This document shows, in pieces, positions 19,334-43,149 of a stretch of DNA of 64,000 nt. The notes below the pieces were generated by a model. That model was not told the DNA's origin. It did no database searches and was given only the letters and a program-made list of their open reading frames with translations. Position 1 is the stretch's first letter. The number at the start of each line of letters is the position of its first letter. Origin of the DNA: Raillietiella orientalis (taxonomy: Eukaryota); contig JAYWIR010000004.1 of NCBI GenBank assembly GCA_036172245.1, forward strand, positions 4,960,001 through 5,024,000, in the 5' to 3' direction. Position numbers and translations under genes: made by a program.

Positions 19334-20065
19334 AGCTCTTTGACGCTGTTCCACGCCGACCGAGGGCGCGTGTGACTCTTCAAGATAGGTGGTACCCCCA
19401 GGAGGGGACCGCCCTATGAATCCAGGAAATGCTTCGTAGAAGCAAGTCCGTTCCTCTCACTCCTGGAGAGGGATCCTCGAAGTCTGATTGTCTCCGAAGG
19501 CAAACCCCGGAGGGAATCTCCTTCCTTATCGCTCCGGAGGGACTCCCGGAGGAGTCCGCTTTATTTTTCTTGTCCGGGAGGAGGACCCCCCCTCAGCAAG
19601 AGAACCTCTCCTGCTTTCCCTCCTCTGAAGAGAACCTCGAAGGGACGCTTCCGGATTATTTTTCTCAGAAGGATGCTCCCCGAAGGGCGAGGCGCACTTC
19701 TCTACACTCTCTGGAGAGGCATCGTCAATCCACCAGCTCCACGGTACGAGGCGGAGGGTCCATCCACGAGGGGGGAGGGAGGGACGGCTCTTTTGCACAA
19801 CCGAAGGGGAGCCCCCACTCCTTGGTCCCCGGGAGGACGCCGGAGGGTCGACTCCCCAGCCCGGCCACTCATCGGGGACATCCGGGGGCTTGAACCGCTA
19901 CCTGTGCCGCAGCCGAACGAATGTAGGCCAAGCAGAGTCATCTTGTGGGGGGGACTCGAACCTACGACGCACCCCCCATCTCTCGGCGTCGATTCTTTCC
20001 GAGTGTTCGCACCCGCGACGCTTGGTGGTGCCACGCGCGGATACCGCAACCACGTGGTCTCCGAC
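19334..20065 (-). mobile_element. tRNA-headed structured SINE-like element, copy A (full length)
   Basis: ~99% identical to 29270-30001 (about 8 substitutions over the shared ~720 nt core, by eye). The minus strand starts GTCGGAGACCACGTGGTTG...GGGTGCGAAC, with a further GGTTCGAGTCC B-box-like motif downstream. Many short GC hairpins. Confidence 0.8.
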
Positions 20066-20849
20066 ACGGGCAGGCAGGACGGAGCACTTGAGCCCGTGCG
20101 GTCTTCCAATGCCGGGGCCGAAACCTGCTTTCCGGTCCCGGGAAAGGGTCCCAATCCAAGTGCGAGAACGAGGAGCAGGGCACGCGCTATCGCGATAGAC
20201 CTCTCAAAAAAAAAATCTCTTCTATTTTTTGGACCGCTCTCGGCGAGGTGTACACGTTCCGGAGCACCTGCCCCTCTGCGATCCTCTGTGAGCAGTTTCA
20301 TTATCACTTCAAGTTGTGGTCGGAAAGGCTACGGCAGGAAGAAGTAAGTGGATGTTCGTAGTCTTCCCTCGCGGGGGATGGTCCAGCTGCTAGGGAGCTG
20401 CAACCGGCGCTCCCCTCCGATCACCGCCACGAAGACCTCGACGGAGCACGGGCGGAAATAAGTGGAAGTGGCGGAATCCCTCAGAGAAATCACCAGTCTC
20501 ACGTGATGGTCCAGAGGTTCTGAATTCCAAAATCAAGGTGCATCCGCAATGGTGGTGGCCCGCGGTCCTTGAATCCCAGAGACGTGCACGCAACAGCGGC
20601 GACCGTCCGCAGCGCTGCTCGTGGGCGTTCGAGAGCCCGCGTGCGCCTGCGCGAGTGCGCGAGTCCCGCGCACCTTCATGCGCGACCGGGCCTCTTTCGA
20701 GCTGGGATTCCCCTCTGCACATTTGTCGCACTTGGCAAACCTGATTCGTCCGGGTCACGTGCTTCGGGAGCTTGCCTAACAATGAACAAGATGGTGCCAG
20801 CATCCCCTTTGCTGTCCGGATCTCCATCCATCCTGCATAAGCATCACCC

Positions 20850-21200
20850 GCAAGGCCGCAAGGGACGAGGGGCTCCCGAGATGCCATTGAGGTTTGCTGT
20901 GCAAGAAGCAAGGCGGCTCCTTCCTAGTGCCTCCGAACATCAGCAGCTGCTGAAAGCGTGGCTCTCGGTTCGCGACGAGAACGCGTCGTGAGCCAAGATG
21001 GACGTTCCAAAGAGGCCGTTCTTGAGGCCGACTGCCCGAAAATGCTCTGCCATCTCTTTTGTCAAGATTGCCAGTGGATCTCTTGGAACAGAAAGCAAAT
21101 GCCATTCGGTGTGAGTTGGAGCGCTTGTAACAGAGATCAACAGAGGGTTGAATCTGGACATCTATCAATAAGAAAAGGACCTGTCCAGACGTAGAGCCTT
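20850..21200 (-). mobile_element. Decayed hAT transposase C-terminal dimerisation-like region
   Basis: Reads LSVPRDPLAILTKEMAEHF...SILAHDAFSSRTESHAFSSC*...GRSRL, resembling the hAT pattern DPL.FW....FP.L...IL..P.SS..SER.FS.....R.RL. Confidence 0.4.
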
Positions 21201-21984
21201 CGGTAAGTCTCCGCAGACTATTTGACACGGAGGACTGAAACGGTCAAGAAGAATGACGATGACGAGCACCGCAGCAGCGATCTGAAACAGAGACATCCCT
21301 CGGCTAGCTCGTTCTTGCGCAGTGGGGCGAACGCTTGTGACTTGTGATGGTGGGACTGACCAGCACGAACGGTAAGGGGGGAACCTGGCGAGGTGGCGGG
21401 GAAGTCCGATCCTCGTTCCGACCGCGCCAGCCTGCAGCTTCCAGCATCTGGAATCGGACGCCCGCATCTTTTTCCAAGGCCGCTTCCGTGATGTTAAGCC
21501 ATAGCAGCTTGGAACTTCAGAAGGCAAATTCTAACAGAAAGGAATCCTCTTTCCGCAGCTGCCGTTCCTTAACCGCTCGAACGCGTTCGTTCCGGCCCTC
21601 CCGATCCACCCCGTGCATGTGGACACGAGTCATGTGGAAAACACCCGCATTCAATGCGAGGTCACGTTCGGTGCACACGCCTTGAGAAAAGTGGAAAAAC
21701 TCGCGAACCTCAAGTTCGTTCCCTGGCTGAATGCAGAGTTAGATAGAACTCATCATCTCCTTGGAGGTATCACCACGTCAGTCTCTCAAGATCGTCCTTA
21801 GCGAGAACGATGCTTTTTCATACCAAAGAAACGCACCCTCCTATCTCTGGAGCGAATCGTGAAATTATTGCATGACGCTTAGAGCATGTTTTTGCGTCTT
21901 TGTATGTTGTTGTGAGCAGAAGAATAAAGCTAGGAGGAGCGTCGATTTGAGTATTGATGTGTCAACTTGTGAAAACGACCGTCC

Positions 21985-21990
21985 TTTATT
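21985..21990 (-). promoter_or_regulatory. AATAAA polyadenylation signal of the vitellogenin-like gene
   Basis: Plus-strand tttatt, 24 nt downstream of the predicted TGA at 22016-22014. Confidence 0.7.
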
Positions 21991-22013
21991 GCCCGGGGAA
22001 GGCGTTCTTTTCA

Positions 22014-25000
22014 TCAACAGGAAGACTTCAATATCCACTGCTCGTTCACAGTACTGGCCGACTTCAACTGCGTTTTCGTAGGAGCATGGAGGTGCTCCCA
22101 TTCGTGACTTGGAGGTGAGATGGTCTCCGAGAATCCACCTGAAGTTACACAAGAAGTGCATCGGGATTTGCATTGATTAAGAAATATTCAGCAGAAGTAG
22201 GAAACGATCTGGCTCACTTCGACGCGCCCGTTGGGATGCAAGACGATCTACAACTTGAGTTTGTTCCGGATGAAACATTCGGAAACCAAGAAATGTTTGG
22301 CCATCGTCTGGCTGGACCTACGGGCAATCCGGAGATGGCCAAAGAGAATCACATGCATGTAGATGCCATTACGTGAGTTTGCTTAAACAAGAGCGGGGCC
22401 AGCGGTCGGTGGAGATAGCAAACACATCGATACCACGTGGATTTCCTGTTTACTATCACAATAGTAACCCTGAAATCGTATCACGAACACCTGCCGTGTT
22501 CCTCTTTCTGGGGACTTTTGGATTTTGCACCTACAGAAGAGTCGTTCCTGGTCTATCCCCATCGGAACCGATGTGTGAATCATGCGGACTTTACAAGAGA
22601 ACGCAATCCCGTAGGATGTTCCGTGTGCTGTGTCGTTGACTGGCTCACTTTATGAGCCCCGGAAATTTTAAGTGAGGAACCCCAAGAATTGGTCTGAATG
22701 AAACAAGAGTAAACAAAAGGGAAAGAAGTACTTGGGATTTTCCTCAACAGGAAGACTTCAATGTCCACTGCTCGTTCACGGTGCTGGTCGACTTCCCTTC
22801 CTGCTCTTTCGTAGAGGCATGGAGGTACTCCCATTCATGAAAAATGAAAGAATGCAAGAGGGCATCAAACCTGAGGTCATCATTCGCTGTCAAATATGAG
22901 TATGGGAGCGAAAGGGAAAGTTGCTCACAATGCTCATGGGAATGGAGGTGCTTTCAAAATATTTGAGGTGAGGAAATCAAATGAAGAGAAGAGACTGTAG
23001 AGTGAACATTTCGCCATGCAAGGGAGGTAAGATGCGTTCAGACACGTTACCGACATGTCATGGATCGTTCCGCTGATGCAACCATAAATCATTACAAAAC
23101 ACACGCAGCACAAATGTTGCCATGGAACCAGGAACCATTTTTCTTCGTTTCCTAAACATTTTTCATTGCACTTCGTAAGAGAGAGGACGTCAGAAAGAGC
23201 TCCACTTGTTGAACGGTTTTGTTTGAAATTCCACGGGATGTTAAAGGTGATTCCTCATTTCTTAAGGACATTCTTCAGCTAGGTAGCGTAAAAGCCAGCC
23301 AGCCATGTTTCATTGGTGATTTATAAGCAAACAGTGGACATTGAAGAAGTAATGCACCGGAAACTGAGGCGTGTGGTAAGGATGAACTGAGCGTTCTCCT
23401 GAGGTGCTCTTGAGAAAAGTTTCGAGCCAATTTTTCGATCCGACTTTTCAAACTCAGGGGGATTTGCTCCATTGCTACGATCAACGGAGTGCATCGTTCA
23501 GGTCGAAAAAAAACGCATGCAACCATTTCTGGGACTTGCCGCCAAGTCTTACAGTTCACGAGAACTGTTATCTGTTGATCCTGATGATTCTGCAGAGAAC
23601 TCTGTGAGATCATTTTTCCAAGTTCTGTCGTGAAGAGGATCGCCAGGACCAGACGAGAGATGTAGGCATAACGACACGACCTTTTGCACGAAACACATCC
23701 ATAACATTGAAAAATCCTATGCGCTTCCCGAAAGCAAAAGCGCGGCAAATGGATGGGAGAATACAGAGTTTGCAACTCACTCGTTCGAAACACGCTCGAA
23801 ACAAACATTCTGGTTCAGCTACTGGTCACGACGACTCCTTGCTCCTCCAGCAAATATCGAATGCAACCCTACACTGCAACGTCATTTCCGCATGTCAATA
23901 GCGATCTGAGAGCATTCTCTTTCGGGAAAACTGGACAAGAAAAACGAGCCGCTGGCATCGTTGATCGCAAAATTTTTTTTTTTTTTTAGAAGCAGGGAAA
24001 TGAAGCAAAGATGCTGAAAGGCAGATTCACCTGAGTAATCTCCGCAGAGTCCACAGTGGGTGCCTGTGTGTCTGGCGTCCACTCCCACGTTCAGGAACGA
24101 TCCATCGAATATCACGAATACCCCGTGGTTCCATATCGACTTGATGAGATAGATGCTGTTGAATTGCCATATCCTTCAACGATCATTAGCACATCGTTGC
24201 CAGGTATTTCCTGTTGAATGCCATACCTGAAGATACAGTTGTGATCTTCCTTTTGGTAGCAAAACGGGATGTCCTCGTTCACAGAGACAGCTTTTCCATC
24301 GACGGTCAGTTGCAAAGAGCTTTCGTCGTCCGACGGTTTAATTTCAATCTTTATGAGATCAGAATCGAGTCTGCTCTTCCGCAGATGAACCGTAACCTCC
24401 TGAAAACGTGGAGGGGTGGATGCAAGATTCATAAGGGATGAACGCAAAGGAGAAATGAGAGGACGTAGAAGAAGAACGTAGAAGAGAGGGTCGGAGTCAC
24501 CCTCGCGCTTACGAGTGCTTGGCTATCTATTCTGGAGCGACGAGCAAGAACGGTGAAAGTTGCCGCATCTGAGCATTCTCTGCTAATCACAGTGGAGCAG
24601 TGTGACAGGTTGTTGGCTACCGCGTATCCTTGGATGAGGCGCACGTACTCCGACGTAACCTGGCACGTACCTAGGCAACCAGTGCTTCCGTTCCGGCTGT
24701 GACTGTTCACTTACGAAGCATTCCAAGCTTTTCGAGCAAGAATTTCGTGTTCCACAGTTTATAGGAAGGCCGGAAAACGAAAGGCAGCTGCTTCAAAGGA
24801 ATGAAAGTGAAGACGTCGTCGAACAGCGAGCTCGAGAAGCGGTAAGACACCGTCTTGTTGGCCAAGGAGATCTTCCTGTCGACTGCCACGTGTCCTACTC
24901 CGGCTTCCTCGCGAACGGAACGGTTTTCTTCGATGTCGTGATAAGGCTTGAAGATGGACCGCAGCATGGAGAGCAAGTTGTGGTATGCCTTCTTCAGATC

Positions 25001-28000: not shown

Positions 28001-31000
28001 TCAGGCCACAAAAGAACCTTCCCTCCCGTGGATGTGCTCGATGAGCGTTTTGTCACTCACGGGGCCAAGGGCTCCGCTGGTCTTGAACTTACCTGAAAGC
28101 GTACGATATGGACAACAAATCTTGCAGTGAGCCGGAAAACTGGAGATTGGACACTTTGAGGAACGGCATCGTTCCCTGTAGCTCCACGGGGAGTCCCAGG
28201 TCGTTCACGAATGAGTATCTCGAGTAGTACATATCCCCCAGTATTATGTTCCCGATTATTGACCGGATGAATTGGGTCAAACCGTCTTTCTTGGCTGCCG
28301 GAAGAAACACTCAAGTTCTCTTGCAAGCGCTATGTAGCCACTCACTCATAACGACGGCTATCTCCTGCAAGGTGTACGTCTTCAAGAATGCGACCTGGTT
28401 GTGGTATTTGACCACCACCTCGAAATGGAAATCTCCGTGGGTGCGCTCCTTAATGTTTTCTTCTTCTTCGAAGTCTGTGGTTTCCTTGGGGCTGAACCCG
28501 TAAGGATAAAGACTCTCCACGCCATGCAGATTCATCTGAAACTAAAAACACGCATTTTTTGGGGGGGGAGGAAGGGTTACCCTTCTAATGGGAAGCGAAT
28601 GCGTTGTGGACACAAACAAACCTTTCAACCTGGCAATTTACATTGAATTTATAATAAGTGCATGAATTTATGGTCATTATTACCATCTGAAATCAACTAC
28701 CATATTTTGTTTGTCAATTACCACAGTCAGTCACCATATGTGCAATTAATGCGTAATTATTTATATGAATTAATGCGACTATCAGAGCCTGCAGAAGAGG
28801 AGGGTCATCTTTCGAAAGTAGGGGTTGTCGGCATGCAACTGAGCCAAGGAGAGACAAAGGCAAAGATAAGCCAGGGAAGTTCTGAATGCATGGGAGGCTC
28901 TCGAACCTAGGGCATTGTAAAATCCTGTTGGGTTCTCCCATTTTCGCTGCTCCTCTTCCAACTTTTTCTTTCCTTTTCTTAGGTTTGCCAAGTGCTGAAG
29001 AACCGTTCACCTCCGTAGGGAGGGGCTAATGGAGCTTTTGAGACCGTCGATGCCACCCGAGGGTAAGTGTAGTGACTCTTCGAGTTATAGGGGTAGTCTC
29101 CGAGGATCACCCTATGAATCCAGGAATGTCTCGGATTTCGTTCCTCTCACGCCTGGGGAGGCATCCCCGAAGGGAATACCTCCACCCTGGTTGTCTCCGA
29201 AGGGAATCCCGAATTGGATCTCCTTCCTTATTTTCAACGAACTGTTGGCCACCTTGCGGGGGTTTGCAAAGCTTTTTAACACTGTTCCACGCCGACCGAG
29301 GGCGCGTGTGACTCTTCAAGATAGGTGGTACCCCCAGGAGGGGACCGCCCTATGAATCCAGGAAATGCTTCGTAGAAGCAAGTCCGTTCCTCTCACTCCT
29401 GGAGAGGGATCCTCGAAGTCTGATTGTCTTCGAAGGCAAACCCCGGAGGGAATCTCCTTCCTTATAGCTCTGGAGCGACTCCCGGAGGAGTCCGCTTTAT
29501 TTTTCTTGTCCGGGAGGAGGACTCCCCCTCAGCAAGAGAACCTCTCCTGCTTTCCCTCCTCTGAAGAGAACCTCGAAGGGACGCTTCCGGATTATTTTTC
29601 TCAGAAGGATGCTCCCCGAAGGGCGAGGCGCACTTCTCTACACTCTCTGGAGAGGCATCGTCAATCCACCAGCTCCACGGTACGAGGCGGAGGGTCCATC
29701 CACGAGGGGGGAGGGAGGGACGGCTCTTTTGCACAACCGAAGGGGAGCCCCCACTCCTTGGTCCCCGGGAGGACGCCGGAGGGTCGACTCCCCAGCCCGG
29801 CCACTCATCGGGGGCATCCGGGGGCTTGAACCGCTACCTGTGCCGCAGCCGAACGAATGTAGGCCAAGCAGAGTCATCTTGTGGGGGGGACTCGAACCTA
29901 CGACGCACTCCCCATCTCTCGGCGTCGATTCTTTCCGAGTGTTCGCACCCGCGACGCTTGGTGGTGCCACGCGCGGATACCGCAACCACGTGGCCTCCGA
30001 CGCCGACCATCATGAAATCAGTAACAGTTGAAAGTCTTTTTCACGATCTATTTTCGTGGGAGAAGAGTCACCAAGACTCTTCTCCCTCCTCCGCAGCGTC
30101 TTCTTCTACTCGTACAGGGAAGGTCACGCAACCAAGAGGATCTTCTTACCTGGACAGGGTAAAGTTCTCGCTTTTGGATCTTCCAGTTCAGCATTGCGTA
30201 CACGTAAGAAGGAAAGTAGGATTTGGGAGATCGATTGAGAGTGAAGAACAGCCCTCCGCTGAACCCGTATTCGTTGTCCTTGAATTTGAAATAATGGGCC
30301 CAGGAGTGGCTCTGGGGGGCGTCGAGGTGCGGGTTGCCCATACTGTCCAACAGCCTCCTAGCGGTATCTGCCCTAAAAGACATCGGGGTTCAGACGAAGG
30401 AAGACACTCGTGGGATTAAATGAGGAGGCCAGAAACACGGGGAGTTCCTTTCTCGCGGTGCCGACCGGGGTCAGGAAAGCTCCGATGCTTGTCGCGGGCT
30501 CCTGAGGGCCGACGCACCCACCCCACCAGGAAGCAGCACCGATCAGCGAGGAAGAAGGACCGCCGGGAGCCGCTTATCTCGCATGGTTTTCCTTCCAGAA
30601 CCCCTCCCTTCCTTCTTCGGGGAGAGCTGCAGGAGTCGCAATTACGGCGCACGAGATACTCCCGAAAATCCGGGACCTTTCCAAGAAGAGCGACAGAATC
30701 GGAGCGAAATCGGACCTGCACTTCCGCCCGAAAGGGAGCGAGCGGCCCACCGACAGCCGAGTGGGCACGGGGAAGGCGTATCCCCACGACGGCACCGCTC
30801 TGATATTCCTCTCAGAAGTCCCCCGCGAAATGGTGGTGGAGCGCGCACTTTTCCGCGGGTGGGCAGCAAGCAGGGCTGCCAGAAGTGACGTGTGAGATCT
30901 CTCTCTCTTTTTTCCTTTTTTCTTTTTTTTTCAAAAAAGGCAAATAGCTGCGACCTCAAAGGGAGATCGCTGTTGCTGACCTAGGATGATAAAAATCCTT

Positions 31001-34000
31001 TTGGATTCTATTCGCAGTGTTATCTCTCCAGTTCCCCCTCCCTTCCAGTTTTCTTTCTTTTTTGATTCTCCAAATACTTGAGAATCGTTCACACCCTTCT
31101 GCCATAGGGAGAGAGTCAACGGCAACGACGCGTGGGAACTCTCAAAGCTCTCTCAGCACGGCCACGCCCACACTCTCTTCAGATGGAACGAGCATGCGAA
31201 GATGTCAATGCTCCAGGGCCTCGCAGGCGCTGAGGACAGACATCCTCGGGATACACCCGCGAGGCGAGAACCGTCATCTTCCGTGCCTGGTGAGCTCAAC
31301 GCCCCACCTGCGCTCAACGCGAGAGCGGGTGCTACGCTCCCGCTGAAAAGAGTCCGAGGATCGTCAGCCTCACACGTTCGAAGTTGTGGGGGGTTCCTAC
31401 GAGCTGGAGACCTTCTTACCCCCTTCCTAGTCCTCACTTGTTAGCGACGCAAGTCTCTCCCAGATGGGACATTGCCTGCAGCAGCGAGTAGCAGTAGTGC
31501 ACTAGGTGGCTCTCGTAGTACTTCTTCGCGACCTTCAGTGTGAGAAACATGGTGTCGTACGACCCGTGGGCGAAGAGCACGGTGAGAGTTTTCAGGCGGA
31601 GGTCGTGGTTCTCGCTCATGTTGCTAACGATGTCGATCATCCGGTTGCCCATCTGCGAGACAAAGGAGGGAAGGAGTGATCCCCTCTCCCCAGTACGAAA
31701 CCGCTTTTCCTGACCTGCGGGCTCAAAGAGTGTTGCTCCTTGTGCAAGGAGACGAGAGCGTGGGCTCTCAGGTAGGGATCCTTGCTTTCGTCGAACGCGA
31801 TCTCTTGGGCGACCTCTTTGGTGAATTCATTGTCCATGTTCGAGATGGCCAGCAGCGAAGCCAGCTGCAAGGAGTAGGTCTTCCCGTCTGAAGCACATCC
31901 CCTCTGGTAGCGCGCGCTCTTCCCGGAAGGCCGGTCACTCACTGATCGCCTGCTCGCGTATGAGGTCTGCAAGGAACTTCAGCTGCTGCCAGTCGCATCT
32001 GGCGTTCTTGTCGGACTTGCTGCCGATCCTGTAGTCCGAAGCAGGCTTGCACGCGTGGGAGACCAAGGTCCCGAACCCGATCAGGGCGTGTTCGTAGGTG
32101 CTAGTCGACTTGTCGTATTCCTCCAGGACCTCCTACGGAAACGAACAGACGGGCCACTCAGAAGGACACGTCAAGCGGTCGGGGACAAATGCTAGGATGT
32201 CATTCTTGGAAACAAACGGGTTCAGGGAAGTCTGCGCCAAGCTGCTGACTTGGGGCTAGCGATGGAGGCGCGGTACAAACGAATGAACGCACGCGGTAAC
32301 TTGGTTGCGTCACGGGTAGGTGGCGCCAGGAACAGTTGGCGTATTCGGAAGCGGTCACGAATCACCGATTGAAGGCAAATCCTGAGAAAGGAAGATGCTC
32401 TCCGGGATAACCGATCGGTATGCCATCCAAGGACATGTTTTGACCCATCGCTCAAACAGTGTTGAGGATCTGTTGGAAGCATTCAGGCCGCAAAACAGAA
32501 TCCATTGTGCTTCGCACTGTGAACATTGTAGAACATTGTTTCGTTGTTCCGACAGCGCTGAAAGCTTTTTTTTTTGTTGTTGTTGTTGTTTACTTTTGAG
32601 CGACCACAAAGACTCCTGGAAGATGGTGGCACGCAGACAGGGTTTTGTGATGTCCCATCGCTGTACTTCGATGGACTGCTTGTTTCCGAATGGAAGCCGC
32701 GGTTTTGAGAACCTTGGGTTTCACTGTCTGATCATTGGGCTCAGTCTTTCTCGCCTGGGGGGCGACAGGACGCACGGGAACGACTGGGGGGAGACATACA
32801 GAGGTCAGTTTGAGGCCTGTATCTCCCCCTGTCCCTTGGCGCCCTTACGAGCTTGGAGGAAAGTCTTCGCTCTCTGTAGCGCGCAACGGTTTTTGCGGCG
32901 GAACGCAGGTTTGAGCAAGTCCATGGAAGGGTTCTCCAAGGAAGACAACAACTTATTGCGTACAAACCGACAACCGCGAGCAAAAAATGAAAAAAAAAAA
33001 AAGATGTGAAGAAAGAACCGTAAACACTTCTCACCCAAAGTGATTTCAGCAAATCATTGCTTAAGTCCGTTACGGACAAGGACCAAGTGAAGCTGGACGT
33101 GGCTTCGAGGTCGCTCAATTTCTTCTGTTTTCCCAGGGTGTACAAGAAATATATGGAATGGGAACTTCCGGCAAGCGAGAGAGATCGTATCAGGATCTGC
33201 CTGAAAATCCAAGTGAATTCGTTCTTTACATTGTCATTTGAAAAAGCCACTGGAAGAACATGGGAAAGATGTCCTGTACCTGCTTTTGGGATTCTCATCT
33301 GCCTCGAACAGGTCGTAGAGTTTTATCAAACTGTCGAGATTCAGAGAGCCGATCAGCCTGCGAGCTCCAAGCAGAGGCTTCAACAAACCAAGGAAGAACT
33401 CTTCGGATTGGAACTCGTCTCTTGCACTCCTTGACAGAGCAGTGATCTTTTTATGCACCTTGAAAATTTAGATGAAAGCACAGGATGAGTCCACAGCTGG
33501 AGAACATTTGAGCTAATCTCGAACCGCAAAACTCTTTGGGCCTCTAACAGGCCACAGCGTGCAGTGATTGCGGTTTTTCTGGTACTCGTCTTTTCGCTCT
33601 TCAGACAGTCTAAACATTCATTCGCTTTCTGTTACGAGTGTCAAAGGTTCCTCCGGAATAGCATCTTGCGAAAGCAAACCCTTCGGTGGGAGCTTCAGAA
33701 CGTCACATTCGCAGCTGAAAGAACCCTCACCTCGTTCCGTAGCCTCTCCTGGTCGAACGAGAATCTCTTGAGGCGAGAAGTCTGAGGCGCTTTCCTGAAC
33801 GACAGCGGAGCGTCCAAAGATTCGGCTGGATTTTCGAAAACGAACACCGGCGCGTGTTTCCTGAATTGACTTCCAAGCTCTATTTCCTTCATAGGGACTC
33901 CGGTGGCAAGGAGCATCAGATGCATCCTGGAATCCAGTACAAGAGCTATAGTAGCAGTGACCGTGTAACGCCGTCTGGCAACCGTAACAAGATTCAGCTC

Positions 34001-37000
34001 GTGATAATCTCGTGAGAAGGAGAAAAGAAGAAAAAAATTTTTTTTTTCGGCAACAGCTTCCCGCGAAGAGTGGCCAGACGCCGATGAAGTGAGAGCGCAG
34101 AGAGATAACTCCCAAGAACTGAGAGGATCTTCCACCCGCTGGTCATCGCCGTTTCGAGGAAGCGCGTGTGGTGCGTACAGACCTGCGCTCGAGGAGAGTG
34201 CCACGATCGACACGTATTGCGAGTTCCCACCGCATCTTCCCGCATCCGAGGTTCCCACACGAGCAGAAGGGGTGCGGCGACCTCGCTTGGCGGCAGAAAC
34301 GGGGCAAAGGAGGTCGTGAGGGGACTTTGACCCCAAACCTCGTTCACCTTACTGTGCGCTAGTGCTCGAAGGGGGGGCGCAGTGGTGCAACGAAGCTGCA
34401 CAGCAATTCCATTTTCGATGGAGCCAGCATTCGAAGAGAGGGAAAGTCTGCATGCACGTCGAGCGGATCAGACGAATGAGACCTCGAGATCTTTCTACAG
34501 TACAGCATTAACTTGGAGACAACTTTAATCTGCTTAAAGTTCAAAGCGTACGTCCCAGGATGTTCGTGCAGCAACCCCCATGTGTCGCTGATTCTAAGAC
34601 TCACTGTGCTCCCTACGCTTCGCGGCTTGTTTTCAATTATTTCCCCGTACTGGGGGGAGGGGACGGGAACGAGTTTTTCCCAGCTGTGCGTATGGGGAGG
34701 AGCATTCCATTCCCTTTCGATTAGAGACGGAGTGGCGCTTCCAAGGCCCGACGTGGTGGAAGCGTGGGTTGTGTCTGCCCCTGCGTTTCATTTCCTCCGT
34801 GTTGGCGCTACGCTTCTCTCCGTACCGCAAGAACTCCGAAGCACGTGCTTCGCGTACGGTGATTCCCGTACTTTCGCATTCTTGGACTTGGGGTTTGAGC
34901 TGCATTCCTTGAACCTACTGGAGTTGCACCCCAGGGTCTCATCAGTAGAAGAGGAGACGGAAAAAAGTTACCCCAGGGTGCACCTGCTGCCGATTCTTGT
35001 AACCGATGTGCAGCAGGCAGCAGACTGCGGGTTCGACAGGTAGGACTAGCTTGGATCCGCGCCCTTCTCTGGAAAGGGCACCGCTGACGTCACGCGGTGG
35101 GTATAGTGAGCACCGCTGATCGAAAGCCGATCGCGGTGGAATCGAGGAAGGGAATTCCCTCATTGGCTGCAATGCAGGAATGTTCTTCGCTAGACTGACT
35201 AAGAAACATGGTACAGGGCATTGTGCTGATGAAGCAAGCAAAGTTCCCAACCAGTTTGAGGCTTCCCAGCCGCTCAGAGGGCAGAGGTCGGAAGCACGCA
35301 AGTTTATCGCGAAAGAGAGGTTGCAATCATCCTGTTCCCAGAATATTTTTGGACTTACGTGTTTTTCTCTTCCAGAATGAATCCTTCCGGAGAGAACAGA
35401 GCGAAGATAGACGACCCTTTGAACTCGGCTTCCTCCAGAACGCTACCATTCTGCTTTAGTGTAAAGGTGGCCCGCTGGGGATTCTTGCTTTTGAATCTGC
35501 ACTCCTCCTAGCATAGACACAAACATTTGAGTGTAGTTCGTTTTTCCTTCTCATGCGAGCGGGAAAAAAATCACTGCTCCCTGATCACTCCGGCGAGAAA
35601 CAGCGTGAACAAGTACTGCCGGGCGGAAATTCTCGTGTCATCGGGGAACAGCCAGCATCGCCCGGTGATCCGGAGATGCAAGAGGAATCGAATCTGAATC
35701 CGTCGTCTGAGAATTTCTAATGGAAGCAGCTGTTGTCTTGGATGCCTTCGCGCTCTGGAAGCGTTCACGCGTGCAGGACCGTTTCTCCGGGTTTTCCTCG
35801 TCAGGCATGCCCCCCTTGGTTCTTTCCGTGGATTCAGCGGCACATCAGGTCGCCATCCCAATTTCCATTCATTCAATGACTGTGTGAATAATGGCTGGAT
35901 GCAGGTTCTTGCTGAGGAAGCAATTCGTCCTTGCGACCTTTCGATTCCCCGCCCACACGGGGAACAAACTTCAGCCGGCAGTTGAACTCGAAGTCCGCGA
36001 ATTCTCCCAAACAGTGACAAGCTTGTCACTGTTTGGGATGGGGTGGGGAGGGGGGGCAAGACCCCCACACCAACAGGTTGCTGGCATTGGTTTGCCTACA
36101 CTTGGGTCTTTGAAAATTTCCTGGATTGGCTCGGATTCCGTAGCCTTGGGAGCTACAAGAGTCATTCATGACGTTCGCTTTTCTGTCTTCGCTCTAGATG
36201 CACCCACGTTTCTTGTGATCATCTAGTTTCCGTTATGCTGCATTTTTCTGACCAGTGTCCAGAACACTCGTCACAAACCGGTCCTGACCTTCATTTCTTC
36301 CTCAGTGCTTTCGTACTTTTGGCTTTTGGTCTACGAAGAGCTTATAAAGCTACCCGATATCTACGAATCTCTGTAGTATTTGGGAATCGCTCTCGCTTGC
36401 TTCCTTGTGCAGTGAAGAGGCGACGACTCGGAGGGTCCCCCCGCAACGGGGAGGGTCCTCTCCTTTGAACAACTGGAGAGGTGCCCGTGAGGGCTCCTGC
36501 TCCATCTTGGAGCCGGAGGGGTCCCGCGGTGGGGGGGTCCGCTCTCCGTTGCACTATCGGAGAGGGAACTCCTCACTCCTTGATTCCTGGGAGGACCCGA
36601 AGGTCGACTCCCATTGTTCCGGCCTTCATCGGGAGGCCTCCGGCTTAATCCACCGCCGGTGCCACGCCCGAATGTCTCGGCCAACCAGCGCCATTGCAGG
36701 AGAAACTCGGAACTCGACGACGCAGTGGCGTCAGAGTTTCTGCAGAAGTATTCGAACCCGCGACCCATGTTGCCACACGCGGAAGCCTTAACCACAAGGC
36801 CTCCGACGAGGGCATGTTTTGGGAAGCATAGTATTTGGGAAGCATGTTTTCTGGTGTGTGCTTGTCAAAACAAAAAAAAATACCAGAAAACTGTGCCACT
36901 AAGATATGCATGGGGTTTCGTTCAAAAAAAAAACCTGCCGAATTCCCAAACGATTTCCCTGAACATCGTCAAGCTTCTTGAAATGACTGTGGATATGGAT

Positions 37001-40000
37001 TGAAAGGTGATATCGCGGTGACCTCATTTGCTCGGTTACCTTATTCTCATCGATTCTTCTTCCTCATCGGCATTGAACCTCTAGCTGTTGAAGGCCGTTA
37101 GCTCCTTCCTCGTATTCTGTACGTCTTATACAAGGAAACTGAGAACGCTGCTTGAAGATCCAGGGGCCACAGGTAGCCAAGTGAGAATTTCCTTTGTCTT
37201 GTATCGTGTGAAGCTGACATTCCGGCAACTGCTATTTATTTTCCACGTCAAAAATGGGAACGAAAAGACACCGAACTTCCCGCCCGAGCAAGCGTTGGGC
37301 ACGCCTTACATCGACCATTCGGTTCCATGCCACTGAGATATGCATGGTGTTTCGTTTCCGTTTACATAACGCGGAAGTGAAGTAGGTGGTTTTTCTCTGT
37401 TGCTGGAAGAAACACTGAACAGGAATCGTGGGAAGGGAGATTCAGCTAGAACTGAATGAACTCTCCTAAAGATGCGAATTCGTTCCAGAACACTTTAAAT
37501 CCGAGCGAACTTGGACTTTGGAATCCGGCACCTTCTTCCTAACTGTGTTCCTCACTCTAAAGTCTTAACGGTTGGGTATCTTGTACTTCTCTCGTGCTGA
37601 TGCCGTTAGCTGCCAAGGTAACATGCCTCTATCATTGCGATCATTACGAACGTTATGTATCGGTAGTCTCGAAAATGCTGGATGATTCCAGCTGGATGGT
37701 TTTTGCGACCTGCTTTCCCTCGCCACGTCCTCAATTGCTTTCTCATTGCTGTTCCCGTCCGTTCCATAGAACGGACGTTCAGCCCCTGGCCTTCGTTAGC
37801 ACAAGCATGTTGTATCCCTGTGTCCGTCAAGCTCTGTCAAACCTCGCCACCCCTCCTTGAAGAACTGCATACCATGTTTTTTGGGGGCTCCGATCTGCCG
37901 AGAAAACTGCTTTTCTTGCCACTACTCAGGATGCACCTGCTCCGTTGACAATGGAGAGACTACGAAAGCTCTCCTCCTAGACAGCTAACGGAAAGTTTGA
38001 AGCGAGATAATTCCTTCGGCTTGGTCCGCTTGTCGCGGAAAGTAAGATGTTAAAGGCGACCGAGATTGAATCTGACGAAAAGACCAGGTAGAAGAGGATG
38101 TCGGAGCCTTCACAGGCCGTGAAGTATTCCCGGGAAACGTACAGATTGCCCAACAGATTGCCCAGGATTTAACAACAAATGTCGCAGCAGACCCTCGGGC
38201 GCCTGCTGAGAAATTTGTCGGAAAACAGGGAGGTTGTAAGCTTGTTCTTTCTTGGTGGGGAACAAAAAAGGAAAAGAATTCACCTCTCCGATGCAAGCAC
38301 ACTGGTTGAAGTCCTGGAAGTTTTCGGCGATAAACGGTGCGTTTTTGCATTTATCCGCATCCCTGATCTTGTAGACGAAGACCGTGTCCCCGGAGGGAAT
38401 CGTGGTGTACCAACCTTCGCATACACCTCCGACGGTTGGCTTGGAGACAAATGACCTCAGCATCTCCCACCTTTTCGTCTTACCTCCAGAGCAAAGTTTC
38501 GCCTCTCCCCTTCACGCACAGGGAACTGAAGGTTGGATGCGATGGCTTTCTTTATGTTCACTGACCACAGCGTGTCGTCAGTTGACGTCCTGATGTGTTT
38601 TAACTGAAAGAAAGGAAACAAAGGGGCTGGTAGAAACAAACAAATCCAACAACCGAGGTCTGGTAGTTGAGCCGGTTTGGCCTTCGAGAATCCGGCCTGG
38701 AATCTCCTCGAGCAACTGCGAACTTCGCTGCTCTCGAGCGGTAAAACGCGTGGTACTAACCAGCTGTCTTCCGTCTAGATGGATCTCGAAGGTCTTTTCC
38801 AGCTCACTGATGCGCTCCTTGTACCTGGAGTCCGTGAGATGGATTTGGGATACGGTTGCTGCCTCGCTACCGCTGCTGCCGGGTCCGTTGAACAGTTTGA
38901 GGTACTGGACGACCACCTGGAACGGTTTGGATGAGTTTGCTGAAGTCACGGGACTTTAGAGAGAGGGGATCTCACCTGGCAGTTCAATATCTTTCCCTCT
39001 CCGGTAGTCCTCGGTTGGATGTACAAGAAGGCTTCACACTCGAATCCGGACTCGCCTTTGACTCTGAGGGTCTGTGGTTCCACCTTGGCCTCCAGAAAAA
39101 GCTTGTAGAGGTACTCGGTGCCCGAATGGAACGGGCTGATCAGACTGTGGTGCGTGTTCTGGGCTGGAACATACGCGTGCTGAGTGCCGCTCTCTGTACT
39201 TTCCGAACTTTCAACCAGCCCGCCGGGAATGGGCGGGTGAGCTGCAGATTGCGAAAAACCCGGAACATCCCAACGTAAAATCATGTGCAGGATTTGGGGA
39301 CAGGAAGGAGGGGGGGAGTCAGGAGATACGGCAAGGTAAAGACAGACCTAGAGGAGAGCGCGCTACCGGTGAGAGAAGCACCCCTTCGGGGGAAAGCGAA
39401 ACTCGCGTGCGGGACGAGAAGGCCAAAGTACTTCCGCCGGCGGCAGTTGGGAGAGGCTGACACTCTTGAACGGAGGACTGTCTTTGCGTGCAGAACTGTC
39501 TACGGATGGACGCGTGCGGAGGAACCCTGCACGCGTCCGGTGACGCCTGTAGGCGAAGGGAAGGGTTATCATGGAATCATAGCCCACCGTCCAGCTCTCC
39601 TTTGATCTCCTTCTTGGGAGAGGAGGGTCCTCTTTTAGAACAGACGCCAGAAGGATGCTGATCGGTCTGTGGCAGATTCCGGATCCTTCCATCTTGTTTT
39701 GGGTCATCCGCTCCCGCTACACTTCTGCACGGATGGAATTTTCGTTCCGCGGTCCCTATGCATCCGGCCATTCGGCTTGTCCTGTAAGATCTGCCACAGA
39801 AGCGCATCGTTTGCGGGGGTTCTCAGACTCAGGGCAAGTCGATCCTCCTCTCTGGACCTCTTCCTCTTCGTCTCCGCTTCGGTCAACCTTCACGCGACTT
39901 CCTTCCCGCCCTTCGAGCCAGGTGTAGCTTCTCTTCACGTGCCCCGTGGAGGTGGCGCTCCTCTGCCGTCCAGGTCGGCCAGGGAACGTCGCCCGGATCA

Positions 40001-41216
40001 CGGCCCTGCGTTGTCAGTTGACCCTTTCCCACCCTCGTGAGGGCGAACTCTCCCCCCGCGTCGTCGCGATCTTTCAATGACTCAGGTGTGCCCCCTCCGA
40101 ACCTCGCCCCAGACGCATGACCCAGAGGAGTGCCGGAAGTCTACGGAAAGTGGCTCCTTTCTGACCCTGGAGCTCTGTTCTTCCCGGAAACCTTCCCTCT
40201 CCCACATGCCTGAGTCGAGAGGACGTGCCGTTTTTCTGGAACTCGCGTGCAAAGGGACTTCGCTTGCCCGGCGTGTCCCTCCCGAGGGCGATACTGTTGC
40301 AGCCGGAGCCGAAGGACAGAGCGAGAGGCTTCCGTCGACGACGCCGTCGGCGGGCCCCCTTGGAGAGGCCGCTACTGCGGCCGCATAAGGGAAAGGCGTT
40401 TTCACTTCAGGAGGACCTGATCCTCGGGAGAGGCATCGATTCGTCGAGAAGCAGGCGTCCGGGAGATCTTTTCGAGCTTCACCCGCTTGCCCCGAGGGAC
40501 CCAGCAGGTCTGCCTTCGGAGGGAGTCGCTGCCTCGACTCTCTGGCCAATTCCCTGGCGCGTCCTCCATGGCCGCCTTCCTTGTGCGACCCCAGCGCTGT
40601 CCTGGCCGGCGGCGTTCTCTTCGCGCTGTTCGTGCTGCCTCGGAGCGGCGAGGTCACCTCTCTCCTCACGCCCCAAGGGAATGGAGGACGCATATGACCT
40701 CCGGGATGGGAAAGAGCGATAGGAAAGATCCTCTGGCATGGGTCTTCCTTCGTCACACCTCGCTGTCACTGACACCAGACTGCCCCCCTCCGCTCATGAG
40801 AACGATCCGTGGCCAACGGCAAACGGAGAGGATGGAGAGAATCCAAGGCAGCGAGTGAGCTGCTCCGACCGCAGATGTTCCCCGCTCGTTGGCGCTATCC
40901 TAGGAGGAGGGGGGGATTCCATCCTCCACGCTCGCTCATCCCCCCCCTCCCTTTGATCGTCAATGAAAAAAAGCCCTCGGAGGTGCAACCTGCAGGGAGA
41001 CCCACGTGCCCGCTAATGAAAGCTCCAGAGTCGGGTTTGCGGGGAAGTCGGGTGGTGCCTGGGCGGGAGAGTGGGAGAGAGCGAAGCCCTTCTGCCCTCG
41101 CGAGAAGCGGGTAAAGGGGGGGAAGGGAGGCTCCGCAACGGGCGGGAACCCGGCTTACCGTGAAGGCACGTGGCCGCTAGGAGGAAGAGGACCAGCGGGT
41201 GGCCCTTGGACTTCAT
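22014..41216 (-). CDS. Vg-like: Vitellogenin-like / large lipid transfer protein (signal peptide, LPD-N, C-terminal vWD), ~28-30 exons
   Basis: Phase-consistent exons: 41216-41159 (MKSKGHPLVLFLLAATCLH, signal peptide), 39241-38976 (PFHSGTEYLY), 38916-38761, 38603-38484 (WSVNIKKAIASNLQ), 38439-38284 (PTVGGVCEGWY), ~34285-33731 (internal boundaries uncertain), 33458-33280, 33200-33035, 32132-31943, 31887-31715, 31652-31438, 30372-30150, 28535-28346, 28294-28093 (DLGLP), 27325-27150, 27100-26952, 26855-26755, 26703-26586, 26535-26329, unresolved 26328-25340, 25339-25064, 25009-24715, 24670-24513 (vWD start), 24399-24227, 24173-24031 (VIFDG...HCGLCGDY), 22138-22014. Confidence 0.9.
22743..22839 (-). 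repeat. Diverged duplicate of the 3' part of the Vg terminal exon, inside the last intron
   Basis: Encodes HEWEYLHASTKEQEGKSTSTVNEQWTLKSSC* versus HEWEHLHAPTKTQLKSASTVNEQWILKSSC* at ~22014-22106. The DNA similarity is directly visible. Confidence 0.85.
29033..29232 (-). mobile_element. Diverged partial (3'-end) copy of the structured SINE-like element
   Basis: Matches 19334-19530 (gtgactcttc...ccctatgaatccaggaa...cgttcctctcac...ttgtctccgaagg...atctccttccttat) and lies almost directly next to copy B. Confidence 0.75.
29270..30001 (-). mobile_element. tRNA-headed structured SINE-like element, copy B (full length, in a Vg intron)
   Basis: Near-identical to 19334-20065, with the same 5' boundary GTCGGAG. 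Confidence 0.8.
36005..36038. repeat. Perfect 34-bp palindrome
   Basis: TCCCAAACAGTGACAAG/CTTGTCACTGTTTGGGA with no spacer, centred on AAGCTT. Confidence 0.95.
36430..36807 (-). mobile_element. Diverged 5'-half copy of the SINE-like element with the clearest tRNA-like head
   Basis: Minus strand reads GTCGGAGGCCTTGTGGTTAAGGC...GTGTGGC...GGGTTCGAATAC (A-box-like and B-box GTTCGAA). Internal blocks (actccttg, gtcgactccc, catcggg, gacgca) are colinear with copy A. Confidence 0.7.
39330..40800 (-). mobile_element. GC-rich decayed element in Vg intron 1, possibly the N-terminus of a non-LTR retrotransposon
   Basis: ORF 40082-40756 begins PCQRIFPIALSHPGGHMR, a C2H2-like remnant as in R2-type N-termini. 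Weak RT-like TGVTGRVQG further downstream. Weak evidence. Confidence 0.25.
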
Positions 41217-41269
41217 GGTTGCTCCGCCGACAGGATTCTGGCTGCCCGGAGCTGCCGCGACGTGCGACC

Positions 41270-41345
41270 TTAAATAGTACGGCTCTCAAGTGGCTCGATG
41301 GCAAACAAACACCAAGTTCAAGTGGCCCTGGCGACAAACAAACAC
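41270..41345 (-). promoter_or_regulatory. Putative Vg core promoter: TATA-like box plus duplicated upstream motifs
   Basis: TATTTAA at 41276-41270, ~55 nt upstream of AACC-ATG. Two copies of TCAAGTGGC...CAAACAAACAC at 41286-41312 and 41318-41345 (minus-strand TGTTTGTTTG, forkhead-like). Confidence 0.6.
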
Positions 41346-41575
41346 TCCTTCTTCTTCTTCATCTTCTTCTTCTTCACCACCATCACCATCTGCTTCTTCT
41401 CCTCCTCCTTTTCTTCCTCCTCCTCCTTTTTCCTTCTCTCGAGAGTGTGAACCTTCACTCTTCCTCACAAGCAGCGGCTGGCGGCGCGGAGGAGACGACA
41501 AGACTCCCTCCTCCTCCTCCTCGTCCTTCCTTCTTTCCTCTTTCCTCCTCCTCCTCTCCTCTCCCTCCTCTCTCA
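41346..41575. repeat. Polypyrimidine (CTT/CCT)n low-complexity tract
   Basis: Seen directly. It explains the Ser/Pro/Leu/Glu-rich spurious ORFs at 41006-42060. Confidence 0.9.
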
Positions 41576-42364
41576 CGGTTTGCATTGCTTTTCCCCCTCT
41601 ATGCCTCTCTTGTGCTTCGTCCGCCACGGTTGCAAACCTCTTGCACGGAACCCGGGCCTCCAATTCCGGAGCGGACAGGGTGTCCGCTCCTTCAGCAATG
41701 CACGCGGGGGTTCCAGAAAGCACCGGCGCACACAGCTGCTGCGATACTCCGCGCTCCCCCTCGACTCCAAGCGAAAACCGCCCCGGTTCCACACCCCCTG
41801 CGTTCGCTCTCTCGACCGCGGGTAGAAAGGTGTGCGGAGAGGGATTGATGGGGCACCCTCTAGCCGGAGCTCCGAGTGCCGATGGGTACCTCCTGGGACA
41901 TGCTCCACGGAGGAAGGCCAGAGCGGGCGGACGGCTGCCGTGCATGGCCACCCAGCGTTATATGTATAATCTTATTCATTATATTTATATTAAATTTATA
42001 CCTGATTTTAAATATAATATTTATAATAAAATCACGAGAGTGGATGAAAATATGCTTTGATTTATACAAAATCTCAAATGTTTTACATAATAATAATTTG
42101 TTAATAATGTATTAATTATTATGTCTTAATAGGTATGTTAAATATTAATAAAGGGATAAGTGTAATATTTTTAAAAATGTTTTAGTGTTAATTAAATGAG
42201 TTGCTTCTTAGCGTATTGCAAAAAGGTCAAGAAGTAGTTTAATAGAATATTTTGTTTACAACAAAGAGGAAGATTTCTTGTTGTTTAATGTGAAATACTA
42301 ATATGACAGAAATATATGTATTAAATTTAGGATTTAATTATGCTTTGGCTATTAATAAAAATTT

Positions 42365-42934
42365 CTACGGGTTCGAATCCTAGCGTGGAGGTTTCGACTC
42401 CAAGAAATGGATGCGTCGTGAGCCCCCCTACAGGATGGCACTGGTTGGCCTGTGGGCTTCGGGTGCCGCACTGGAGGGAAACCGCCGGCCCTCTCTGAAC
42501 CTGCCGGGGCTGGAATTCGACCCTCCGGGATCCTTTCAGGAATCAAGGAGTCCTTCGGAATTCCACTCCGGTTGTGAAGATGGAGCATTCTCCTTCCATC
42601 TCGTACCATGGAGCTGGTGGATTGGAACCTCTCCAGAGAGTGCAGAGAAGCGAGCCGATCCCTTAGGGGAGCGACTTTTCGGAGAAATTGGAAAGCGTCC
42701 CTTCGGAGTTCTCCTCAGAGGAGTAACAAGGAGAGTGAATTCTTTCCGGGGGGTCCCTCCGGATAGAACGAGGAAGAGATGGTTCCCTTCAGGCTTCCCT
42801 CCCAAGAGTCAGAGAGGAACGGACTCCTGCCTCCGGAACCCTTCCTGAATTCATGGGGTGGTCCCTAGGGGCTGCTCCCAAACTTAAAGAGTTGACACGC
42901 ACCCTCGGGTGGGGTGGACAGCATCAAAGAGCTT
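42365..42934 (+). mobile_element. Diverged, inverted, 5'-truncated copy of the structured SINE-like element
   Basis: Starts at the B-box GGGTTCGAATCC. Shares cgtaccatggagctggtggattg, cctctccagagagtg, gagaggaacggact and the terminal aagagt..acacgc.ccctcgg...cagc.tcaaagagct with copy A. Confidence 0.8.
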
Positions 42935-43149
42935 CATGATCCCCCCTCTACCCTCCAAGCAGGCGAGCGCTTCTTTGGCACTCAGCGAACCGACTAAACC
43001 CCAAAAGAAAAACCCCACCCGTCCACCCACCCCCCAAAAAAAGCTGGAAGAAGCAGTGGCAACAGAAGAACCCAGTAAGAATTCCATCCTGCTGTTTGTT
43101 TGCCCTGCCTCACCTGACATCAGGAAAAGGGTCTCCTGAGGAAAGCTCT

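Follow-up and report, generated by a model that had tools for sequence, protein, structure and literature searches.

What kind of element recurs as a ~720-nt unit with a tRNA-like start within a single 64-kb stretch of DNA (the whole stretch analysed, hereafter the window)? A preliminary description had taken it for a young, tRNA-headed mobile RNA, built as a chain of hairpins. Our analysis favours another answer, namely that the copies probably belong to a family of animal retroposons that are SINE-like and non-coding, and that the near-identical block shared by its two most similar copies is a mosaic.

Genomic setting and wider searches

Pfam matches to VWD (25.5 bits, over the cut-off) and Vitellogenin_N (20.9 bits, under the cut-off), both on the minus strand, point to an animal origin of the window, and the copies are scattered in and near what reads as an animal yolk-protein-like gene. 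Two ORFs of at least 75 aa, at 63.3–63.8 kb, fell outside the Pfam ORF scan, and 124 additional small minus-strand ORFs, a set from which the 17 overlapping the copies were left out, yielded no further exons. For the VWD exon no homologue turned up among longer proteins, and a protein atlas gave no usable match. The CpG o/e of 0.85–0.87 argues against a heavily methylated vertebrate genome. A pattern scan of public contigs gave 0 and 4 matches in metagenome contigs, 3 in genome contigs and 0 and 0 in viral contigs, and the seven matched loci were attributable to chance by nhmmer (best E=0.11). Five 14–17-mers of the element were absent from the main full text of papers, where a 10-mer occurred in unrelated primer contexts.

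Six related copies and fragments

All five copies listed in the preliminary description were recovered by blastn and nhmmer, together with a sixth fragment. Used as a blastn query against the window, 19334–20065 (minus strand) matched 29270–30001 (minus) at 98.5% identity over exactly 732 nt and, more weakly, 42394–42933 (plus), 29072–29231 (minus) and 36528–36807 (minus); an nhmmer profile of copies A and B matched 42368–42765 and 42728–42933 (plus), 36498–36807 (minus) and 29037–29231 (minus). The unit comprises a head of ~75 nt, whose A- and B-box-like motifs are placed much as in a tRNA; a body of ~560–655 nt rich in sense-strand CUNCGG, with an extra ~92 nt in copies A and B; a first tail module of ~40–75 nt (tail1); a variable A-rich stretch; and a conserved second module of ~50–65 nt (tail2).

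Copy A (19228–20065, minus; ~838 nt, family profile match 20065–19217) is the most complete, with the head at ~19991–20065, the body from there down to 19334 (ending in AGCT), tail1 at 19293–19333, an A13 run at 19280–19292 and tail2 at ~19228–19279. Copy B (29270–30001, minus) is separated by a 38-nt spacer (29232–29269) from copy E (28905–29231, minus), which is 5'-truncated at about element position 537 and runs on through AGCT, tail1, an A-rich stretch and tail2. The insertion containing copy D (36387–36828, minus) begins with 21 extra nt, followed by the head with GTCGGAG from 36807, a body that reaches position ~331 and has a short stretch duplicated within it, and a tail1-like end; the claim that three copies start at GTCGGAG holds for A, B and D. 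Copy C (42363–43097, plus), truncated at position ~50 and adjoining AT-rich DNA, is without the ~92-nt A/B insert (approximately 19530–19621, minus, in copy A) and goes on into tail1, which is followed by a long stretch rich in A and C and then by tail2. Fragment F (30979–31118, minus; profile E=2.3e-25), truncated at position ~760, holds only tail1, the A-rich stretch and tail2; it was absent from the preliminary list and is the sixth family member in the window.

This amounts to six copies or fragments per 64 kb, all between 19 and 43 kb and with unrelated flanks. The units, up to ~838 nt, are thus shorter than 1 kb, interspersed and non-tandem; no tandem array was found among the copies, nor any significant internal repeats or dimer structure in the element body.

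The 3' end and flanking DNA

The preliminary description let the element end at AGCT, with no A-tail. Family homology passes this point: in A, C, E and F it extends ~100–110 nt beyond AGCT, across tail1 and the A-rich stretch, which varies (A13 in copy A), as far as tail2, which is ~73–75% identical between copies compared with ~65% for the body. As far as these alignments tell, the fixed, tailless 3' end is an artefact; the 98.5% identity of A and B stops at AGCT. E and F have ~15 nt more in common beyond the last aligned position of A and C, and the true 3' terminus is placed only roughly by the alignments. Sense-strand runs of four or more (copy B excluded) comprise 2 of T versus 17 of A.

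For four copies the preliminary description also saw no obvious target-site duplication (TSD). At A, B, C, E and F no flanking direct repeat was found; copy D is bracketed by a perfect 13-nt direct repeat, TTCCCAAATACTA (upstream 36829–36841, downstream 36374–36386, both minus), a candidate TSD with exactly two matches in the window versus 0.00 expected; the alignment score of the copy D flanks was reached by 1/400 shuffles. The downstream 13-mer can also be aligned to the family tail1. Site-specific insertion with tail2 as the target site was considered and rejected: none of the six copies has a 5' flank with anything in common with the others or with tail2.

Promoter-like motifs in the head

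The B-box pattern GGTTCRANNCC has eight matches in the window versus 1.41 expected (0/100 shuffles reach eight), five of which sit in copies on the sense strand. A pattern that combines A- and B-box-like motifs at tRNA-like spacing has three matches versus 0.00 expected, in A, B and D only: in the copy D head (36748–36795, minus), as A-box-like GTGGTTAAGG and B-box-like GGGTTCGAATAC, and with the same pattern at 20003–20053 in copy A and 29939–29989 in copy B. Copy C carries a perfect B-box motif, GGTTCGAATCC (42370–42380, plus). In A and B the B box at the canonical position is degraded (GGTGCGAACAC), and extra B-box-like motifs occur at 19952–19962 and 19886–19896 (copy A) and at 29888–29898 and 29822–29832 (copy B). 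Other GGTTCAATGCC sites, at 11943 and 37069, belong to no repeat, and the sequence before copy C, considered as potentially tRNA-like, was dismissed as AT-rich flank.

The motifs of boxes A and B thus predict a Pol III promoter, as an indication only; the 'Definitions' of SINEBase likewise treat such boxes as an indication, not proof (PMC3531059). The 'tRNA-headed' character in the preliminary description survives as box-like motifs at tRNA-like spacing but not as a whole tRNA: ARAGORN found no tRNA, even at an 80% threshold, and the Rfam tRNA, 5S and 7SL models had no match at E<=10 on the heads of A, D or C. In the copy D head, positions 13–57 align in register with positions 16–60 of a bacterial tRNA-Asp; 30/44 nt are identical, among them an uninterrupted stretch of 15 nt spanning the T-arm, and the score is reached by 8/200 shuffles. 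Against 30 distinct tRNAs from one bacterial genome, the best overlaps of the heads span 36–49 nt at 68–75% identity (3–8/200 shuffles reach the score). This similarity is modest, the heads scoring 16 and control pieces of the window 12.1 on average, with a maximum of 21.

The near-identical pair

Copies A and B, both on the minus strand at a distance of 9,936 nt, have unrelated flanks, and their identity ends exactly at both limits of the 732 nt. They differ at 11 positions, three of them within the last 12 nt, so that identity is 712/720 up to position 720 and 9/12 thereafter (P about 8.5e-4, post hoc). Beyond the block, the spacer between B and E is weakly similar, in register, to tail1 of copy A (about 19/26 identical; 2/500 shuffles versus the tail alone, 23/300 versus the whole element), which is only suggestive of homology between the spacer and that tail. 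Because identity drops at the end of the block and is ~19/26 beyond it, and because the two copies share a strand at a distance of 9,936 nt, we read the 732-nt block as a probable mosaic from a local event between them, most likely non-allelic gene conversion or in-register replacement. The limits of the 98.5% block would then differ from the natural element boundaries, the 5' limit being the end of homology and the 3' limit the place where the tails of A and B differ by an indel. At the divergence seen in the tails (~73% identity, on 26 nt), however, conversion would be inefficient.

Alternatively, A and B could be independent recent insertions from an active master of a young subfamily, the tail of B having later been lost or replaced, which we consider a real though secondary possibility; to the same limited degree we would expect the genome to hold many ~99% identical copies. 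Their 98.5% identity, unrelated flanks and common exact 5' start are what such insertions would leave, and the ~92-nt insert and additional perfect B-box-like motifs set A and B apart from C and D. Nonetheless, the tails of the two match worse than their bodies, with A running into tail1, A13 and tail2 and B into 38 nt (~73% like the tail of A) and then the old copy E. Moreover, 3 of the 11 differences crowd into the last 12 nt, neither copy has a TSD, and the canonical B box is degraded in both. Outside this pair, all copies are 64–78% identical, which marks the family as old and decayed; the epithet 'young' would apply to the A/B pair alone.

Motifs and folding of the sense strand

According to the preliminary description, the family is a ~720-nt RNA with fixed ends and no tail, whose fold, a chain of hairpins with UNCG-type caps, is under selection; we consider this highly improbable. 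Among the points in its favour is the motif CUNCGG, which shows strong sense-strand enrichment in two copies only ~65% identical, with 8 sense and 1 antisense sites in copy A (shuffle mean 1.50) and 8 and 0 in copy C (shuffle mean 0.92; 0/1000 in both cases). The UNCG-type loops therefore hold as a sense-strand-specific motif, but mostly without a stem: three or more contiguous pairs occur at 7 of the 20 sites (none of the 8 in copy C), and the other 13 have two or fewer. At 5 of 19 testable sites the hairpin is more stable than when the flanks of the site are shuffled (z<-1.64, where about 1 site would be expected), but the positions of these five are not conserved, and two are inside copy-specific inserts.

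The hairpin GGACTCC-TCCG-GGAGTCC at 19540–19557 is present as described, with 7 bp; no other stem with a 4-nt loop reaches 5 bp, and this one lies inside the ~92-nt insert missing from copy C. Stems of 3 bp with 4-nt loops number 26 versus 14.8+-3.9 in shuffles (5/1000), whereas those of at least 4 bp (5 versus 4.3 expected; 432/1000) and at least 5 bp (1 versus 1.2) are not enriched. Folding energies match those of shuffles, with z-scores for the whole element of -1.09 (sense) and -1.90 (antisense), a mean z of -0.21 (minimum -1.09) over 13 sense-strand windows of 120 nt in copy A, and a mean z of -0.38 in sliding windows of copy C. A chain of hairpins is thus not borne out.

Comparative evidence, of low power with only three independent lineages, is weak, and the sense strand has no advantage in it. 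When the 3' block is folded by RNAalifold, double-sided changes affect 4/46 pairs versus 1.5+-1.0 (8/500) and the covariation score is 0.225 versus 0.191 (5/500), a test biased upwards because the structure was derived from the same four sequences. Column shuffling gave z=-1.86 for the 3' block on the sense strand (2/100), and for the 5' block -2.84 on the antisense versus -0.70 on the sense strand, so that the antisense strand scores equal or better. The RNAalifold covariation term was +0.38 kcal/mol. The 3' stem said to be kept by compensatory changes dissolves into pairings that each copy can form in a different register, and RNAalifold predicts none. Rfam, with its HDV, hammerhead and twister models, gave no ribozyme or other family match: there were no matches at the gathering score in the whole window, and copies A, D and C, screened at E<=10, had only chance-level matches to unrelated families. 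Neither energies below those of shuffles nor strand-specific covariation, the marks of a structured non-coding RNA, were observed, and the ends are not fixed. These observations can be accounted for without any selection on an RNA fold.

Class and origin of the family

The SINE-like label of the preliminary description fits an interspersed, non-coding family with a common 5' start, box-like motifs, 5' truncation and one 13-nt repeat. Three of the six copies are 5'-truncated (C, E and F, at about 50, 537 and 760) and have the 3' part in common, and these, with the perfect 13-nt repeat at D, make LINE-type retroposition a fitting explanation. Pol III would transcribe master copies from the internal promoter, and a partner LINE would supply the reverse transcriptase and endonuclease by which the RNA is copied into nicked target DNA, a process expected to leave 5'-truncated copies and TSDs. 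No reverse-transcriptase ORF, and hence no candidate partner, was found among the 469 ORFs scanned in the window, nor any LINE with a matching 3' end.

A repeat of another class that happens to carry box-like motifs, be it a non-autonomous DNA transposon or Helitron, a solo LTR, or the 3' portion of some longer element, LINE or otherwise, is in our view quite unlikely. The lack of a whole-tRNA signal, boxes that are only an indication in the SINEBase definitions (PMC3531059), a unit unusually long for a SINE and the ill-defined 3' end (with ~15 nt more shared by E and F) all leave room for it. Set against these are the exact 5' start in three copies and 5'-only truncation in the other three, a retroposon pattern, and the absence of any coding remnant, no ORF of 75 aa or more overlapping the copies having a Pfam family. 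The ends are neither TG...CA nor TC...CTRR, TIRs are lacking at either candidate 3' end (443/500 and 79/500 shuffles reach the score), and the window repeat search found no inverted repeats involving the copies. The combination of TIRs and a fixed-length TSD that distinguishes MITEs and DNA transposons was not observed.

A variant of the SINE-like reading appears unlikely as well: an undescribed, unusually long (~750–840 nt) tRNA-promoter SINE whose masters retain about ten sense CUNCGG sites over deep divergence and whose copies are renewed in place. The CUNCGG sites might then, on an equally long shot, be nucleation points for RNA folding or a protein-binding repeat, and renewal might, with no better prospects, proceed by homology-guided conversion that is mediated by cDNA or by a copy and keeps in register with old copies. 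In-place renewal, if true, would account for both the A/B mosaic and the junction at D, where the 13-mer aligns with the element's own tail.

Taken as SINE-like retroposons with a mosaic pair, the family is a decayed interspersed repeat to be masked and annotated as such, and matters little as it stands; a near-identical copy pair can, as here, mislead on element boundaries. If they held genome-wide, two features would modestly interest specialists: a length above the catalogued SINE range, and the strand-specific CUNCGG kept between ~65% identical copies, a hint that the master RNA is constrained. The A/B mosaic, if confirmed, would be a clean example of SINE–SINE gene conversion outside primates.

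Comparison with known systems

SINE-like elements that bear ribozymes include the schistosome Sm-alpha family (hammerhead) and retrozymes. The present family resembles them as non-autonomous, repetitive RNA-coding elements in invertebrate genomes, and a test for self-cleavage had been suggested for it, but differs in having no hammerhead, HDV, twister or other Rfam match. Okada and Ohshima reportedly reviewed 'stringent' SINE/LINE partnerships, in which SINEs have a LINE-derived 3' region; the conserved 3' module (tail2) and the lack of a terminal poly(A) recall these, although no LINE with a matching 3' end was found in the window.

In primates, Alu SINEs undergo gene conversion with one another (PMC2686708). 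As there, one copy apparently overwrote part of another with a sharp change in identity; in contrast, conversion is here deduced from a single pair, whose prior similarity may be too low. SINEBase, in its 2012 section 'SINE data analysis', covers 175 families of 75–662 nt without tail (PMC3531059), a range that the ~838 nt found here exceed. Its criterion for a tRNA, 5S or 7SL origin is at least 60% identity over at least 60 nt, and the best overlaps of our heads reach 36–49 nt against one bacterial tRNA set. Unlike in tRNA-derived SINEs, as far as that source portrays them, the A-rich stretch is internal and followed by the conserved ~50–65-nt module. In the remaining traits that the same source gives for tRNA-derived SINEs the likeness is close: the family is interspersed, non-coding, shorter than 1 kb and organised as head, body and tail; its 5' start coincides with the tRNA-like, box-bearing region and the origin of its body is obscure; and it shows a variable A-rich stretch, 5'-truncated copies and one TSD-like direct repeat.

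Copies of a SINE-like family and the extent of their 3' end

Both blastn and nhmmer confirmed the five copies (A–E) named in the preliminary description, and a profile built from all copies recovered a sixth fragment, F. With this profile, copies A (20065–19217), B (30001–29236), D (36807–36427) and E (29231–28905) and fragment F (31118–30979) lie on the minus strand and copy C (42367–43097) on the plus strand, the best match in the window beyond these six having E > 2. Unrelated flanking DNA marks the copies as insertions rather than segmental duplicates. Across exactly 732 nt, A and B agree at 98.5%; every other pair is 64–78% identical. The six represent a genuine SINE-like repeat family, old for the most part, that may already have been catalogued. 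Pattern scans for the element returned chance matches only from contig collections of metagenomes, genomes and viruses, and its 14–17-mers were absent from the main text of papers.

A fixed 3' end without an A tail had been proposed for the family, but the AGCT that closes the body ends the A–B identity only, and family homology extends beyond it, for ~80 nt between C and E. Past AGCT, A, C, E and F have in common a first tail segment (tail1), a variable A-rich stretch and a conserved second segment (tail2), which terminates near GAACCCAAAAGGATTT; homology then fades, with ~15 more nt common to E and F. The A-rich stretch is A13 in copy A (19280–19292) and a longer, degenerate A/C- or A/G-rich run in C, E and F. 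Tail2 was considered as a target site and rejected, because nothing in the 5' flanks of the copies resembles it. As tail1, the A-rich stretch and tail2 thus belong to the family, copy A spans ~838 nt.

Junctions and signs of retroposition

Three sequences lack 5' sequence of the element but keep its 3' part: C is truncated at about position 50, E at about 537 and fragment F at about 760. AT-rich DNA adjoins the 5' junction of C. The element has no terminal inverted repeats that we could find, and no flanking direct repeat was found at A, B, C, E or F. An exact direct repeat of 13 nt, TTCCCAAATACTA (36829–36841 and 36374–36386), flanks copy D; it occurs twice in the window, only around D, and the flank alignment score was reached by 1 of 400 shuffles. 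D ends in ~60 nt that can be aligned to tail1 of F (score reached by 4 of 500 shuffles), so that the downstream 13-mer can be read in two ways, either as a target-site duplication or as the element's own tail, the latter implying in-register insertion into an older tail. Between the upstream 13-mer and the GTCGGAG start of D lie 21 nt (TGCTTCCCAAAACATGCCCTC; 36808–36828, minus strand) in which pieces of the neighbouring flank (ATGCTTCCCAAA and ACATGC) recur, and this 5' junction resembles a scar left by template switching or microhomology.

The tRNA-like head

The common GTCGGAG start was borne out for A, B and D. In the head of D, positions 8–23 (GCCTTGTGGTTAAGGC) resemble a D-arm hairpin and include an A-box-like motif, and GGGTTCGAATAC lies at about position 50; the corresponding site carries a perfect GGTTCGAATCC in C and a degraded GGTGCGAACAC in A and B, which have two additional perfect B-box-like motifs downstream. 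The B-box pattern occurs eight times in the window versus 1.41 expected, five of the eight on the sense strand within copies. The element had been described as tRNA-headed, and of this the Pol III box-like motifs stand while a whole-tRNA signal does not: ARAGORN found no tRNA in the copies even at an 80% threshold, its calls at 70% being inconsistent, and the Rfam tRNA model had no match on the element at E ≤ 10. When the heads were compared with 30 distinct tRNAs of a single bacterial genome, that of D aligned in register with a tRNA-Asp (30 of 44 positions identical, including 15 consecutive matches across the T-arm), at a score only ~2 SD higher than those of shuffles and of control pieces of the window. 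The 'Definitions' section of SINEBase (PMC3531059) treats A and B boxes as an indication only. A tRNA ancestry of the head is plausible, at a level below the SINEBase criterion of ≥60% identity over ≥60 nt in this comparison with bacterial tRNAs.

Copies A and B as a possible mosaic

A and B lie on the same strand, 9,936 nt apart, and their 11 differences (nine transitions and two transversions) are unevenly spread, three falling in the last 12 nt, where 0.18 would be expected (post hoc P about 8.5e-4). The 38 nt that follow AGCT in B, adjoined by the old 5'-truncated copy E, are in register with tail1 of A (19 of 26 identical), a score reached by 2 of 500 shuffles in comparison with the tail alone and by 23 of 300 in comparison with the whole element. 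Because A–B identity drops from ~99% to ~75% while staying in register, B resembles a mosaic more than a complete young insertion. A young active subfamily in which the tail of B was damaged would be a less likely account of the same pair. The mosaic probably arose by non-allelic gene conversion, or in-register replacement, between the two loci, in which case the tract would be limited on the 5' side by the end of homology and on the 3' side by the indel difference between the A and B tails.

RNA folding

Folding energies were unremarkable. With 20 shuffles per strand, the MFE z of the whole element was −1.09 (sense) and −1.90 (antisense), and 120-nt sliding windows gave sense means of −0.21 in A (minimum −1.09, 13 windows) and −0.38 in C (minimum −2.12, 11 windows), and an antisense mean of −0.40 in both. 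Hairpins with 4-nt loops are enriched at 3-bp stems (26 versus 14.8 ± 3.9 in shuffles, 5/1000). The 'hairpin-packed' character claimed earlier did not extend to longer stems (five versus 4.3 at ≥4 bp, one versus 1.2 at ≥5 bp), and the 7-bp hairpin cited for it falls in a ~92-nt insert that only A and B carry.

CUNCGG enrichment is a real signal, a sequence motif, with eight sense and one antisense occurrences in A (1.5 sense expected) and eight and none in C (0.9 sense expected), neither sense count being reached in 1000 shuffles. Several sites are positionally common to different copies, with the N position swapping U and C. The majority of sites form no hairpin: 13 of 20 have at most two contiguous pairs, and none of the eight in C has three or more. 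When the closing pair was imposed, five of 19 sites scored better than with shuffled flanks (z < −1.64); their positions are not homologous, and two lie within copy-specific inserts.

In the 3' block (A, B, C and E) the RNAalifold covariation term was +0.38 kcal/mol, and its structure had four double-sided pairs versus 1.5 in shuffles (8/500), a count biased upwards because the structure derives from the same sequences. Against column-shuffled alignments, the sense and antisense strands had z of −1.86 and −1.44 in the 3' block and of −0.70 and −2.84 in the 5' block, with no preference for the sense strand. Selection on the RNA fold is therefore unsupported by energies, stems or covariation, the covariation tests having low power with three independent lineages. 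Nor do the results support reading the element as an RNA with fixed ends, no tail and a fold under selection.

Host locus

The window looks eukaryotic, and its CpG o/e of 0.85–0.87 is unlike that of a heavily methylated vertebrate genome. It contains no tRNA genes and no Rfam families at gathering score, and a Pfam scan of 469 of its stop-to-stop ORFs revealed no reverse transcriptase or transposase. The scan did identify a VWD exon (23885–24175, minus; 25.5 bits, over the cut-off), with a visible GLCGD motif, and a Vitellogenin_N-like exon (38460–38774, minus; 20.9 bits, under the cut-off). Their N-to-C order on the minus strand suggests an animal vitellogenin/apolipophorin-like gene that would span at least 15 kb, no further exons of which were identified in the window. 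Copies B, E and D and fragment F sit between these two exons in sense orientation. A dsRNA-binding-motif exon (13529–13879, minus; 22.5 bits, just under the cut-off) and a weak 7tm_1 match (62758–63036, plus; E = 0.0035) are possible neighbouring genes.

The window falls into strongly contrasting compositional domains. GC content is 0.29–0.46 at 1–18000 and 50000–64000 versus 0.46–0.61 at 18000–50000, with the maximum at 40–42 kb, and this GC-rich middle holds all six element copies. Other repeats include a ~100-nt direct repeat with no relation to the element (22008–22107 and 22738–22840; 84% identical, ~730 nt apart), and a ~120-nt inverted repeat (45401–45523 and 45856–45972; 71.5% identity) close to a B-box-like GGTTCGAAACC at 45323–45333.

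Comparison with known SINEs

In SINEBase (PMC3531059), a SINE consists of a head, a body, a variable simple tail and an optional LINE-derived 3' region. The present element departs from this concept in that its A-rich stretch is internal, no partner LINE was detected in the window, and its length of ~838 nt exceeds the 75–662 nt of 175 SINEBase families. Its anatomy fits the SINE concept of that source.
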